A DNA stretch of 64,000 nucleotides from Opitutales bacterium. Its GTDB lineage: Bacteria; Verrucomicrobiota; Verrucomicrobiia; Opitutales; Coraliomargaritaceae. Shown in pieces: positions 35,443 through 38,871 of this stretch. Location: NCBI GenBank assembly GCA_030729385.1, contig JANQXM010000029.1:24853-88852 (forward strand). Reading direction: 5' to 3'. Below the pieces are notes generated by a model. That model did no database searches. It worked only from the letters and a program-made list of their open reading frames with translations, and had not been told where the DNA came from. The position numbers were made by a program, and so were the translations under genes. Numbering within the stretch: position 1 is the first letter of the stretch; the number at the start of each line of letters is the position of its first letter.

Positions 35443-36264
35443 TTAGCTTTTTGATTTTTGGACTCGGTCGAAGAACCGATAGGTCGTTGCCACATGCTTC
35501 GTCCAGTAGGGCCATTCGTGGCCGCCTGGGTGCTCGGCGTATTCGTGTGGGATGTCGGCCTCTTTTAGTTGTCGATGGAGGGTGCGATTCCCTTCGACCA
35601 GCGGATCATCGATGCCGCAATCGAATTGAAAAGGAGCTAAGTGCTCTTGGTTGCGTTGTATCGCTGTAATTACTGATACGGCATCTGGATCTTCGATGTC
35701 ATAGCGCTCGAGTGGTTCTTCGACGAATTGACCCATCTCCTCGAATACGGTGATGGATGAGTGTCCAGAGAAGGCTTTGAACTTGCCGGGATGACTCGCG
35801 CCTATGCGGAGTGCGCCGTAGCCGCCCATCGAGAGGCCTCCGATGAATAGAGGTGCGTCTTTGGCGTTGCCAGTGACTTCATGCACAAGTTGCGGCACAT
35901 CCTCGACGATCCAGCGCTCGAAGTCCTGACTGTTGTGCTTCAAGTAACCGCTGCCGTCGCCCCAGAGCCCATCGGAGGGTGTGACTAAAATCATCGGCGC
36001 AACTTCACCCTGATCAATGAGCGCCTGCAGAGTGGTGTGGGCTTGCCCCATGCCGTTCCAAATCCAGTGGCTACCATAGACTCCATGGAGCAGTATGACG
36101 ACGGGCATGCTTTGCCCTCGTTGCACTTGATTCGGCACATAGACGGAGCAATCGGCGCGCGCCGTCAGAGCGGGGCTTTTTACCGTCACATGTTTTAGCA
36201 TACCTCCCTCGCAAGGGAAGTCGCCGATCTCTGTGGTGCGAAAATGGGACTTTGTATCAGCCAT
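35443..36264 (-). CDS. alpha/beta-hydrolase of the esterase D / CE1 (putative esterase) family
   Basis: LLHG...GLSMGGYGA nucleophile elbow, C-terminal HEYAEHPGGHEW. Last gene of the ferredoxin-P450-ADH operon. Confidence 0.7.
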   Translation of the reverse strand: MADTKSHFRTTEIGDFPCEGGMLKHVTVKSPALTARADCSVYVPNQVQRGQSMPVVILLHGVYGSHWIWNGMGQAHTTLQALIDQGEVAPMILVTPSDGLWGDGSGYLKHNSQDFERWIVEDVPQLVHEVTGNAKDAPLFIGGLSMGGYGALRIGASHPGKFKAFSGHSSITVFEEMGQFVEEPLERYDIEDPDAVSVITAIQRNQEHLAPFQFDCGIDDPLVEGNRTLHRQLKEADIPHEYAEHPGGHEWPYWTKHVATTYRFFDRVQKSKS

Positions 36265-36272
36265 ATGGATAC

Positions 36273-37385
36273 TTAATCGAAAACGACGACACCCTTTGCA
36301 TTGCGGCCAGCCATCATGTCGTCGATGGCTTGTTGTAAGTCTTCAAGCGCGTAGGTTCGGGTGATAAGTTCGTCGAGTTTAAGTGCGCCTTGCTCGTAGA
36401 GGCTGAGCAGCTTTGGGAAGTCATGTTCGGGCATGGCTTTACCGTAGAGTGGGTTGATGTAAACTTTGTCCCATTCGAAGAGATTCATGTCGATCTCGAT
36501 GGTTTGTTCGATCCCTGAGACTTGCACGGCGGTGCCGGCACTGCGCACCATGGCAAGGGGAGCGGCTCCGAGTTCAGGCACACCGGTGCACTCGAAGGAG
36601 TAGTCGGCGCCACGCCCGCTGCAGAGGGCTTTGATCTTTTCGGCCGCTTTGAGCAGTCCGGTATCATTGCGCTCTGCGAGGATCAGGTCGGTCGCGCCAA
36701 ACTGTTTCGCCATGTCCAGTCGACCTTGGTTGACGTCCACGGCGAAGATGCGTGCGGCACCCGAAATGCGGCAGGCTTGTATGACGTTGAGTCCGACGCC
36801 ACCAGTGCCGAGCACGACAGCGCTGGATCCCGCAGTGAGCTTGGCTGTGTTTACGACCGATCCGTAGCCAGTCATCACACCGCAGCCGATAATACAGGCG
36901 GAGCTAAAAGGAATTTTAACATCCGTTGGGATGACCGCTTCTTGTTTGACCACCGCGTGAGTGCTAAGGGTGCCAATATTGAAGGAGCGTTTGAGTGCTT
37001 CGCCGTTTTTCCAAGTGGTGGAGCCAGCATGTGCGGCTCCGTCGTCTGGATTGTGGCCGACCACCGGCGAGTTCTTTTCGCAGATGTTTTGGTGACCAGT
37101 CTGACACTGATAACACTCGTGGCAGGGAATCGCCCAGTTGAGTAAGACAGTGTCGCCTGCCTTGACGTGTGTGACGCCTGGACCGACAGATTCAACGATG
37201 CCCGCGCCTTCGTGCCCGAGCACATGGTTGTAGCCCCAAGTGAGTGAGTCGTAATCCGTGTGGCAGATCCCGGAGGCTTTGACTGCCACGCGCACTTCGC
37301 CTGCTTTGGGTGGATGGACTTCGATGTCCTCGATGGTGAAAGAACCTTGGGCGTCAGCGACGGCCGCTTTTGCTTGAATGATCAT
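36273..37385 (-). CDS. Zn-dependent medium-chain alcohol dehydrogenase, related to class III / formaldehyde-dehydrogenase-type ADHs
   Basis: GICHTD, GHEGAGIVESVG, structural-Zn Cys cluster CHECYQCQTGHQNIC, Rossmann GTGGVG. Start set to ATG 37385 (MIIQAKAAV), 10 nt after the P450 stop. The longer ORF overlaps the P450. Confidence 0.8.
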   Translation of the reverse strand: MIIQAKAAVADAQGSFTIEDIEVHPPKAGEVRVAVKASGICHTDYDSLTWGYNHVLGHEGAGIVESVGPGVTHVKAGDTVLLNWAIPCHECYQCQTGHQNICEKNSPVVGHNPDDGAAHAGSTTWKNGEALKRSFNIGTLSTHAVVKQEAVIPTDVKIPFSSACIIGCGVMTGYGSVVNTAKLTAGSSAVVLGTGGVGLNVIQACRISGAARIFAVDVNQGRLDMAKQFGATDLILAERNDTGLLKAAEKIKALCSGRGADYSFECTGVPELGAAPLAMVRSAGTAVQVSGIEQTIEIDMNLFEWDKVYINPLYGKAMPEHDFPKLLSLYEQGALKLDELITRTYALEDLQQAIDDMMAGRNAKGVVVFD

Positions 37386-37395
37386 AATTGGAGAA

Positions 37396-38535
37396 TCAAC
37401 GGGCGTTGAATTTAGCACGAAGCATTTCGTAGCCGACTTTACGAGAGTAGTCTTCCTCGTGCTCAATGAGCTCGGTTTGATCGGTGACTTCAATCGATGC
37501 TACGGACTCACTGAGTTTTTGAACGATGCCGCGCATGATAGCGCGAGCGTGGTGCTGACCGAGGCAGTTATGGATGCCGAAGCCGAAAGCGATGTGTGGG
37601 TTCGGCTTACGGTCGAGGCGCACTTCGTTGGGTGCTTCAAAAACCTCGGGGTCGCGATTTGCCGAAGACCAGCAGAGTGAGACGCGGTCGCCAGCTTCCA
37701 CTTCGTGACCATGCACATCTGTTTTAACTGGGCAGACTCGTCCAATGTGAGTGAGTGGTATAAAGAGACGGAAGAACTCTTCGCAGGCGGTATTTAGCAT
37801 CTCAGGGTGCTCGCGGATGCACTCCAGTGCTTTCGGGTTCTCGGCGAAGTATTTAAGGATACGGGTTGCGGTGTGGATGATGGTATCGCGACCACCGGCA
37901 AAGGCGATGTTGGCATAGCCCAGTTTTTCTTCCATCGTTAGCTTACGTCCTTGGAACTCAGCTTGGTTCAATGCGGAGAAGAAATCCTCGCCGGGATTTA
38001 CCTCGGCGGCTTCGAACATCTGCTGAGAATATTTTTCCATGAACGGTCCCTTGGATTTTCCGTCGCCGTCTTTGAAGACGTGGATGCCCCAGCTGATCCA
38101 AAGCTCGGCTTCTTTTTCGTCCACGTTGAGCAGATAGGTGAGGGCGTGCGATTGGAGGGGGATGGCAAAGTCTTTAACAATATCGATCTCGTCGGCCGCG
38201 CATGCTTCAGTGAGCAGGCGCTCGATTAAGGAATGTATTTTTGCGAGCACCTCTGGCTGTTTAGGACGGAGAAAGAAGGGCTCGACCAGTTTGCGGTATT
38301 CCGCATGGACGGGTGGGTCGACTTCGAGAGGATACTGGCGCACGGTGCGCACATCTTCTTCGGAGGGGATCGGCACACGGCGGGGCGCATCCGAGCTGAA
38401 GGTAGTGTAATCTTTGGCGGCTTTGCGCACGTCCTTCAATCGAAGGATCATGGGGATGGTTTCTCCCTGGTGCTGAGCAGCGAGGACTGGGCACTTAGCG
38501 CGCGCCTCACGAAAGGGGTCGTTGTAATCTTGCAT
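37396..38535 (-). CDS. cytochrome P450 monooxygenase (candidate 6-O-methyl-D-galactose demethylase type)
   Basis: I-helix AGGRDT, ExxR (EEFFR), heme loop FGFGIHNCLGQHHA. Adjacent 2Fe-2S ferredoxin. Porphyran/agar locus context. Confidence 0.8.
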   Translation of the reverse strand: MQDYNDPFREARAKCPVLAAQHQGETIPMILRLKDVRKAAKDYTTFSSDAPRRVPIPSEEDVRTVRQYPLEVDPPVHAEYRKLVEPFFLRPKQPEVLAKIHSLIERLLTEACAADEIDIVKDFAIPLQSHALTYLLNVDEKEAELWISWGIHVFKDGDGKSKGPFMEKYSQQMFEAAEVNPGEDFFSALNQAEFQGRKLTMEEKLGYANIAFAGGRDTIIHTATRILKYFAENPKALECIREHPEMLNTACEEFFRLFIPLTHIGRVCPVKTDVHGHEVEAGDRVSLCWSSANRDPEVFEAPNEVRLDRKPNPHIAFGFGIHNCLGQHHARAIMRGIVQKLSESVASIEVTDQTELIEHEEDYSRKVGYEMLRAKFNAR

Positions 38536-38556
38536 AGGGTATTTGTGGGCTTTTGC

Positions 38557-38871
38557 TTATTCTTCGGGAGCGACTTCGACGATGAGACCATCGAGTTCGT
38601 CGGTTAATTCGATTTGACAGCATAGGCGGCTATTGGGCTTTTTGTGCTCATTAAAATCAAGGGTATCCATTTCGATCTCATCGGCGCTACCAATTCGATC
38701 CTGCCAGTCATGAGTGACATAGACATGGCAAGTTGAGCAGGAACAAACGCCGCCGCAATCACCAGTGATACCTTCGACATCATTGTCGGTTGCGATTTCC
38801 ATCAGGGTGCCGACGGCATCTTCGACCACGACCTTTTCGCCGTTTTGCTGAATAAAAGTAATTTTGGGCAT
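38557..38871 (-). CDS. [2Fe-2S] ferredoxin, adrenodoxin/putidaredoxin type
   Basis: 104 aa. CGGVCSCSTCHV (C-x5-C-x2-C) plus distal Cys in LCCQIEL. Confidence 0.85.
   Translation of the reverse strand: MPKITFIQQNGEKVVVEDAVGTLMEIATDNDVEGITGDCGGVCSCSTCHVYVTHDWQDRIGSADEIEMDTLDFNEHKKPNSRLCCQIELTDELDGLIVEVAPEE

Follow-up and report, generated by a model that had tools for sequence, protein, structure and literature searches.

A probable Verrucomicrobial form of the 6-O-methyl-D-galactose demethylation cassette, without a dedicated ferredoxin reductase

We analyzed a 64,000-nucleotide stretch of DNA (hereafter the window) from an Opitutales bacterium (assembly GCA_030729385.1, contig JANQXM010000029.1, positions 24,853 to 88,852) and focus here on four genes within it, encoding a ferredoxin, a cytochrome P450, a zinc-dependent alcohol dehydrogenase (ADH) and an esterase. 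Sequence comparison identifies all four as orthologues of the genes in a known Flavobacteriia cassette. The operon is probably the Verrucomicrobial form of this AraC-controlled cassette, which enables porphyran degraders to use 6-O-methyl-D-galactose; the ferredoxin reductase would be supplied in trans, and the ADH and esterase would act as helpers, not as FrmA/FrmB.

In porphyran, up to about one quarter of the galactose units are barred from use by methyl ethers (PMC10033563). The Flavobacteriia cassette that deals with them consists of P450, ferredoxin (Fdx), ferredoxin reductase (FdR), ADH and esterase (Reisky 2018; Brott 2023, PMC10033563), and in the Zobellia and Polaribacter clusters these genes follow, in this order, a divergent AraC gene. 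The P450 cassette has previously been described only in Bacteroidota and Gammaproteobacteria. The cassette in the window is of a known kind. It differs in its phylum and P450 clade, in the loss of the dedicated reductase, and in having the ferredoxin gene first.

Results

The P450 belongs to a Verrucomicrobial clade of the CYP236 family

The P450 gene (37396..38535, minus strand) encodes a CYP236-family protein of 379 residues, a probable 6-O-methyl-D-galactose O-demethylase by sequence. In the Protein Data Bank (PDB) it matches the Zobellia 6-O-methyl-D-galactose demethylase (6g5o/6g5q) best, scoring 374 bits; the P450 next in rank scores 137 bits. A preliminary description of this DNA had proposed that the P450 and ferredoxin form a 6-O-methyl-galactose demethylase module, and this result bears it out. 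Over its full length the protein is 48% identical to the P450 of the Zobellia cassette, above the 40% line for a CYP family and below the 55% line for a subfamily. It is also similarly short: the P450s of the characterized CYP236A system (Zobellia galactanivorans and Formosa agariphila; Reisky 2018, Robb 2018, 6g5o/6g5q) have 385-387 residues. Common to both are the heme motif (FGFGIHNCLG in the window, with Cys324), the acid-alcohol pair of the I-helix (GGRDT, D223-T224) and an adjoining adrenodoxin-type ferredoxin gene, as well as a divergent AraC gene and a setting in an agar/porphyran locus.

Maximum-likelihood analysis recovers the CYP236 family as monophyletic (support 100/99). Its branches include a Flavobacteriia group (95/95) and a mostly Verrucomicrobial group of 30 rows (95/97), and the window P450 lies within a subclade of 16 rows (100/98). 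The preliminary description had called for a comparison with CYP236-type demethylases; by sequence, the window P450 is a member of a Verrucomicrobial sister clade to CYP236A, outside the Flavobacteriia branch. Metagenomes hold many of its closest relatives (70-97% identity), and the named ones among them are assigned to Verrucomicrobiota, Coraliomargaritaceae, Puniceicoccaceae, Pelagicoccus and Synoicihabitans. A search with the P450 alone returned only Verrucomicrobial relatives and two remote P450s, and the Flavobacteriia clusters were reached via the ADH. Close P450 relatives also occur in three metagenome-assembled records (L003, L002 and L004) whose titles give the names Akkermansia muciniphila, Prosthecobacter debontii and 'uncultured Klebsiella sp.'; such names look like placeholders or mis-assignments for environmental Verrucomicrobiota.

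In the CYP236A demethylase, Glu62, Arg66 and Gln70 of the B-C loop hydrogen-bond the galactose ring at O2-O4. All three are invariant in the window P450 and in all 28 full-length aligned sequences, and G220 and L267 are likewise conserved in the window P450. Three hydrophobic contacts differ: V58 is replaced by Pro, F73 by Leu and M270 by Ile. Val58, Phe73 and Met270 have been reported as absolutely conserved in CYP236A, and in the Zobellia P450 alanine changes at two of the hydrophobic contact positions abolished binding. Most aligned P450s of the Verrucomicrobial clade share Pro at position 58, Leu or Ile at position 73 and Ile at position 270.

These differences raise the question whether the P450 acts on some other substrate, either another methylated sugar or a hydrocarbon. 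The identity to CYP236A of only 48% and the three replaced contacts would allow it, related P450s occur in loci without porphyranases, and a CYP236A member from Pseudoalteromonas has been reported to hydroxylate cyclohexane (PMC11910816). We nevertheless consider another substrate highly unlikely, as the Glu/Arg/Gln trio that reads galactose O2-O4 is invariant across the whole clade and the gene is located between porphyranases and sulfatases. The comparisons support a close relationship of the Fdx-P450 pair to the characterized 6-O-methyl-D-galactose demethylase.

The genome lacks a putidaredoxin-type reductase

The ferredoxin gene (38557..38871, minus strand) encodes a [2Fe-2S] protein of the adrenodoxin/putidaredoxin type, 104 residues long, with the Pfam domain Fer2 and a C-x5-C-x2-C motif. 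The protein is 50% identical over its full length to the ferredoxin of the Zobellia cassette, and its identity to the Pelagicoccus, Coraliomargaritaceae, L029 and Haloferula ferredoxins is 61-70%. Among NCBIfam models it comes closest to fdx_isc, with a score below the cut-off of that model. The gene stands upstream of the P450 gene, whereas in the CYP236A system it stands downstream.

A class I three-component P450 system has a dedicated FAD reductase (Pyr_redox_2 plus Reductase_C), which is present in the cassettes of Zobellia, Polaribacter, Lentimonas/G041, G112 and G103. It is missing from the window cassette. The absence of a ferredoxin reductase gene from the 64-kb window, noted in the preliminary description, was confirmed and extends further: a domain search of the whole genome (99.6% complete, 73 contigs, N runs being 100-nt scaffold gaps only) found no Reductase_C domain, and the cassette FdR of a relative, used as query, gave a best genome match of only 27% identity. 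The Pyr_redox_2 proteins in the genome are housekeeping proteins only, namely two Lpd, one Lpd/MerA-like protein, TrxB, GltD, MnmG and similar. Of these, TrxB (whose score exceeds the cut-off for thioredoxin reductase), the Lpd-like proteins and GltD were weighed as candidates for the missing reductase and rejected as ordinary housekeeping enzymes. Because neither the cassette nor the genome has a putidaredoxin-type reductase, the ferredoxin would have to depend on reduction in trans.

The FNR family is represented in the genome by two CysJ-like diflavin reductases only, encoded at C9 7160-8893 and C21 1517-3319. One of the genes adjoins CysI, and the other adjoins NIR_SIR and molybdopterin-oxidoreductase genes. 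This second gene ends a cluster on contig C9 (1457-8893, L072) that encodes a NIR_SIR hemoprotein, a Fer4/DmsC protein and a molybdopterin oxidoreductase; the cluster is probably a nitrate/nitrite assimilation unit with a CysJ-type electron donor.

Relatives of the cassette differ in their redox partners. Within a comparative sample of 301 Verrucomicrobiota genomes, the P450 was found in 13. A Reductase_C gene is absent from 10 of the 12 P450-positive genomes other than the host; it is present only in G103 and G112, adjoining the P450 gene in both. Cassettes with both Fdx and FdR occur in Lentimonas/G041, G112 and G103. Those with Fdx only are found in the window, in Pelagicoccus, where the ferredoxin gene lies within the operon, and in Haloferula, where an Fdx-P450 pair is divergent from AraC-ADH-esterase. 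G041, which belongs to the same genus as the host, carries Fdx-FdR-P450-ADH-esterase with an assembly gap inside the P450 gene (L047 12744-14711, L065 8531-10944), and the sequence upstream of it is identical to the corresponding region of a contig labelled Lentimonas. Its ADH is 74% identical to that of the window. Its P450 is only 49% identical, which indicates that the two congeneric species hold different versions of the cassette.

A third arrangement is found in Rubellicoccus peritrichatus (L069 4028-8973). Here a 594-residue CysJ-like diflavin reductase is encoded between the P450 and the ADH, followed by the esterase, and the cassette contains neither Fdx nor FdR. By sequence, the redox arrangement of this CYP236-family P450 is class-II-like. 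The Rubellicoccus P450 is sister to that of Lentimonas, whose cassette has Fdx and FdR. Since relatives carry Fdx and FdR, Fdx only, or a CysJ-like reductase, redox partners appear to be freely exchanged around this P450. The Rubellicoccus diflavin reductase is 49% identical to the C9 protein of the host and 45% identical to the host CysJ. Because such a reductase is a genomic cassette partner in Rubellicoccus, the two CysJ-like NADPH diflavin reductases of the host are the best candidates for reducing the ferredoxin, and by this analogy they would supply electrons in trans.

The ADH and esterase are not FrmA and FrmB

The third gene encodes an NAD-dependent Zn-ADH of the FoADH/ZoADH family (36273..37385, minus strand, 370 residues from ATG). 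The start was set at this ATG because a 406-residue frame starting at TTG would overlap the P450 gene. The best PDB matches are FoADH and ZoADH (8h2a/8h2b; Brott 2023) at 534-538 bits, compared with 222 bits for class III ADHs. Full-length identity to the Formosa and Zobellia proteins is 64-65% (Formosa 65%), and the gene holds the FoADH/ZoADH position, between the oxygenase genes and the esterase gene. On these sequence grounds the ADH is the FoADH/ZoADH orthologue; its host phylum differs, and nothing in its sequence hints at another function.

The preliminary description had likened the ADH to class III or formaldehyde-dehydrogenase-type enzymes. This likeness does not hold. The protein scores 227.6 bits against the glutathione enzyme model TIGR02818 (cut-off 543.95) and 237 bits against the mycothiol enzyme model TIGR03451 (cut-off 513), and it falls under every NCBIfam formaldehyde-dehydrogenase cut-off. 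In an alignment to the class-3 ADH 8gv3, the segment ADPEG corresponds to a five-residue gap in the window ADH, and the Arg of KIRV is replaced by Ser. We take the gapped segment and this Arg to be the glutathione-binding Asp55/Glu57 loop and Arg114 of the human enzyme. The sub-cut-off scores, the deleted glutathione loop and the change of Arg114 to Ser rule out a class III ADH, or S-(hydroxymethyl)glutathione dehydrogenase. In the genome we likewise found no class III ADH paralogue.

The fourth gene (35443..36264, minus strand) encodes a cytoplasmic serine esterase of 273 residues from the esterase D/CE1 superfamily (PF00756; GLSMGG...GGHEW), in which no signal peptide is seen by eye. With the Zobellia cassette esterase it shares 49% identity over its full length (E 2e-93), and Ser145 (GLSMGG) and His249 (GGHEW) are invariant in the aligned cassette esterases. 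The predicted model (pLDDT 82) has the esterase-D alpha/beta fold with a Ser-Asp-His triad. In Foldseek its TM score to human esterase D, 0.76, is equal to that of the Bacteroides feruloyl esterases, which rank first and are also the best solved matches in sequence (7xrt/5vol). When five cassette esterases are combined in a profile, it scores 104-108 bits on 7xrt/7xrv/5vol and at most 51 bits on S-formylglutathione hydrolases. The protein itself scores 36.1 bits against the FghA equivalog (cut-off 281.7), and in the genome search it is the only match to that model, at 30.5 bits. The preliminary description had named an esterase D/CE1-family hydrolase with the fold of S-formylglutathione hydrolase. 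The fold stands; the sub-cut-off FghA score and the profile, nearer to feruloyl esterases, speak against FrmB. Judged by sequence, its nearest kin are O-ester hydrolases, the CE1-type feruloyl esterases; we place it closer to CE1-type carbohydrate/feruloyl esterases and do not claim membership of CE1 proper.

The preliminary description had joined the two enzymes in a self-contained route, in which the ADH oxidizes a thiol-formaldehyde adduct and the esterase hydrolyses the thioester. A thiol-dependent route of ADH and esterase had already been proposed for Flavobacteriia, with an unknown marine thiol left possible (Brott 2023, PMC10033563). Like FrmA and FrmB, the pair comes from the same two superfamilies, in the same gene order and beside a formaldehyde-releasing reaction; the ADH falls within the wider class I/III Zn-ADH group, its top sub-cut-off NCBIfam matches include mycothiol and glutathione enzymes, and the esterase has the esterase-D fold. 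The two genes are strictly coupled and travel with oxygenases. The genome, in addition, has no other dedicated formaldehyde route: we found no FghA beyond the operon esterase, itself a weak sub-cut-off match, and no RuMP (ribulose monophosphate) hexulose-phosphate synthase.

The thiol route as stated nevertheless finds no support in work on the orthologous enzymes. FoADH and ZoADH were inactive on formaldehyde with six natural thiols (glutathione, mycothiol, bacillithiol, cysteine, CoA and ergothioneine) and with two aromatic thiols, as well as on formaldehyde alone and in dismutation, and they have a pocket too narrow to admit bulky thiols (PMC10033563). The window ADH lacks the glutathione-anchoring loop and Arg, both window proteins fall below the FrmA/FrmB family cut-offs, and the esterase profile is much nearer to O-ester carbohydrate esterases. 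No GshB (glutathione synthetase) equivalog was found in the genome; a weak ATP-grasp match to GshB (64 vs 299 bits) is encoded on C14, some 2 kb away from the Lpd/MerA-like disulfide reductase. An FrmA/FrmB-like route with some further thiol is, in our judgement, quite improbable.

A different role for the ADH is that of a reductase, which would clear a toxic aldehyde side-product such as the galactose C6 aldehyde arising from C6 hydroxylation, with the esterase acting separately, for example in deacylating a sugar. Reduction is by far the better reaction for FoADH and ZoADH, above all with ring-borne aldehydes; they prefer aromatic and furan aldehydes, with furfural and pyridine-3-carbaldehyde the best (Brott 2023). 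The growth defect of the Zobellia ADH knockout is specific to the methyl sugar and is not seen on galactose (Brott 2023), and the esterase resembles carbohydrate esterases. On the other hand, the demethylase yields equimolar galactose and formaldehyde (Brott 2023 citing Reisky 2018, PMC10033563), which leaves little room for a side-product. This explanation also fails to account for the adjacency of ADH and esterase in six of six genomes and for the persistence of the pair beside another oxygenase in a rhamnose-type locus, both described below. We regard it as rather unlikely.

The ADH-esterase pair accompanies different putative oxygenases

Orthologues of the ADH and of the esterase occur in exactly the same 6 of the 301 genomes, adjacent and in the same order in all six. 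In three of these the pair lies on another contig than the P450 (G080 and G109), or no P450 was found (G223). In genome G302, where no P450 was found, the pair belongs to an operon in a rhamnosidase locus (L066, G302:C37, 8964-13190). There it is preceded by a DUF455-like protein, which has two (D/E)ExxH motifs, and by an FNR-Fer2 reductase. This DUF455-like di-iron protein has about 482 residues and no Pfam or PDB match above threshold. A 73%-identical protein recurs on at least 24 marine contigs (L073/L074/L075 5988-11725), in the order AraC (divergent), DUF455-like, reductase, ADH, esterase, adjoining a rhamnose isomerase and an FGGY-family sugar kinase; in L073 the genes for the DUF455-like protein and its reductase span 7001-9571. 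Compared with the window proteins, those linked to DUF455 are 73-75% (ADH), about 59% (esterase) and 36% (AraC, divergent in L073) identical, similar to the values for P450-linked Verrucomicrobial cassettes.

Because the pair also follows the DUF455-like protein, it appears to track the oxygenase step and not the P450, the redox chain or galactose. The feature common to the P450- and DUF455-linked reactions would be a one-carbon leaving group, and the role of the pair points there. The DUF455-like protein is, by sequence, a candidate non-heme sugar O-demethylase. Given these comparative data, handling of the one-carbon product by the ADH and esterase without a thiol is somewhat more likely.

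Proposed mechanism

In the pathway that we propose, the methyl sugar would be freed by the porphyranases, sulfatases and GH2 enzymes of the locus and then taken up. The P450 would hydroxylate the methyl group, giving a hemiacetal that resolves into galactose and a one-carbon product; this step is suggested by the 48% identity to the crystallized enzyme and by the conserved sugar-binding Glu/Arg/Gln and catalytic residues. Electrons would reach the P450 through the co-encoded [2Fe-2S] ferredoxin, reduced by a CysJ-like enzyme. The ADH and esterase would be conserved, obligately paired helpers.

What the helpers do is a more tentative matter. The ADH may oxidize the O-hydroxymethyl hemiacetal to a formate ester, which the CE1-like esterase would hydrolyse, so that formate replaces free formaldehyde. 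In methylotrophic yeasts, methyl formate synthase, an ADH, oxidizes the hemiacetal of formaldehyde and an alcohol to a formate ester, and an esterase cleaves the ester. The chemistry proposed for the pair is the same, except that the alcohol partner would be the sugar itself. Two points lead us to favor hemiacetal oxidation, the in vitro failure of the thiol route and the resemblance of the esterase to O-ester hydrolases; by analogy it is possible, though we would not expect it with any confidence. Hemiacetals and formate esters are not mentioned in Brott 2023. A predicted complex of the P450 with the ADH, as might channel the hemiacetal, found no support, which counts neither way.

A broader version of this idea is doubtful but worth stating. 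The pair would be a thiol-independent device, usable with any oxygenase, that prevents free formaldehyde during sugar O-demethylation: the ADH would make a 6-O-formyl sugar from sugar-O-CH2OH derived from either the P450 or the DUF455-like protein, and the esterase would release formate. The DUF455-like protein and its FNR-Fer2 reductase would then constitute a new family of non-heme sugar O-demethylases.

Several observations weigh against the pathway as a whole or against one of its steps. The functions of the window proteins are predicted from sequence, and with its changed hydrophobic contacts the P450 could have a substrate different from 6-O-methyl-D-galactose. The neighbors of both CysJ-like genes, which are sulfite- or nitrate/nitrite-reductase-like, suggest that these reductases have other primary jobs, and an accessory reductase gene could have escaped binning, the genome being a metagenome-type assembly. 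The ADH-esterase pair is missing from 8 of the 13 P450-positive genomes in the sample. For the hemiacetal step, FoADH and ZoADH have a narrow pocket, prefer the reduction of aromatic aldehydes and show no activity on sugars (PMC10033563). Finally, no formate-tetrahydrofolate ligase was found in the genome.

Organization and expression of the operon

The four minus-strand genes are tightly packed in the order ferredoxin, P450, Zn-ADH, esterase, with gaps of 21, 10 and 8 nt by the open reading frame (ORF) calls. The preliminary description had reported such a run, with gaps of 8-21 nt, in a porphyran/agar locus, and both the spacing and the surrounding GH86, GH16, GH2 and sulfatase genes agree with it. 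In a scan of the operon, the spaces between the four genes were free of terminator-like and promoter-like sites on the minus strand. A promoter scan found no sigma-70-like site 5' of the ferredoxin gene, for a consensus that may not apply to this phylum.

An AraC-family regulator (AraC_binding/cupin plus HTH_18; 39007..39846, plus strand) is encoded divergently from the operon. It is 36-38% identical to the AraC proteins encoded at the same position in Pelagicoccus, G041, G112 and the DUF455-type operon, and we count it, like the four operon genes, as orthologous to its counterpart in the Zobellia and Polaribacter cassettes. The spacer between the AraC and ferredoxin genes is 135 nt and contains two 19-nt direct repeats (38945..38984), 21 bp apart start to start, whose copies are 84% identical to each other. 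These repeats are a candidate operator for the AraC regulator. A loose GTATCA..ATTTGG-like box, seen by eye, lies upstream of several related operons, including the DUF455-type.

Downstream of the esterase gene, a long hairpin (35237..35397, minus strand) separates the convergent ends of the P450 operon and a 19-kb plus-strand enzyme cluster. The fold of 35206-35442 has an energy of -92.4 kcal/mol (z = -6.1 vs shuffles), and the hairpin may serve as a terminator or insulator.

In one seawater metatranscriptome, low-depth contigs fall on all four genes, one of them bridging the ADH/P450 junction, and none falls on the AraC gene. The RNA runs are kept as assembled contigs of depth 3-7, from which transcript ends, strand and level cannot be read and in which uncovered parts are uninformative. 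These contigs give weak support for expression of the operon.

The surrounding locus and the host

The rest of the window is a porphyran/agar locus with two GH86 porphyranase-like genes, several GH16 genes, GH2, more than 10 sulfatase genes and an MFS sugar transporter gene. An aldehyde dehydrogenase and an MR/MLE enzyme encoded in the locus resemble the products of anhydrogalactose catabolic genes. A 967-residue ORF at 40259-43162 has a sulfatase domain and a C-terminal GH16 domain and would be a sulfatase-glycosidase fusion. For two other large ORFs of the locus, at 21264-23351 (695 residues) and 60132-63803 (1223 residues), Pfam gives no match at E 1e-5. The host is a member of the Opitutales, from a genus of the Lentimonas/Coraliomargaritaceae type. 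Public runs that contain the window DNA are seawater or aquatic metagenomes.

Discussion

Three observations go beyond the cassette as described for Flavobacteriia. A putidaredoxin-type reductase is absent genome-wide, as it is from most of the other P450-bearing Verrucomicrobiota sampled (10 of 12). The P450 falls in a Verrucomicrobial sister clade, among whose relatives redox partners are swapped. The ADH and esterase form a strict pair, found also with a DUF455-like protein.

If our reading is correct, free-living marine Verrucomicrobiota carry their own clade of the demethylation cassette and run it without the textbook reductase. Annotation pipelines that demand all three P450 components would miss such cassettes, and biocatalysis would benefit from a ferredoxin and P450 able to work with a housekeeping reductase. 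The role of the ADH, unsettled since the knockout phenotype of 2023, is narrowed by the comparative result: ADH and esterase are inseparable, and the pair goes with the oxygenase step irrespective of the oxygenase, redox partner or sugar locus involved.

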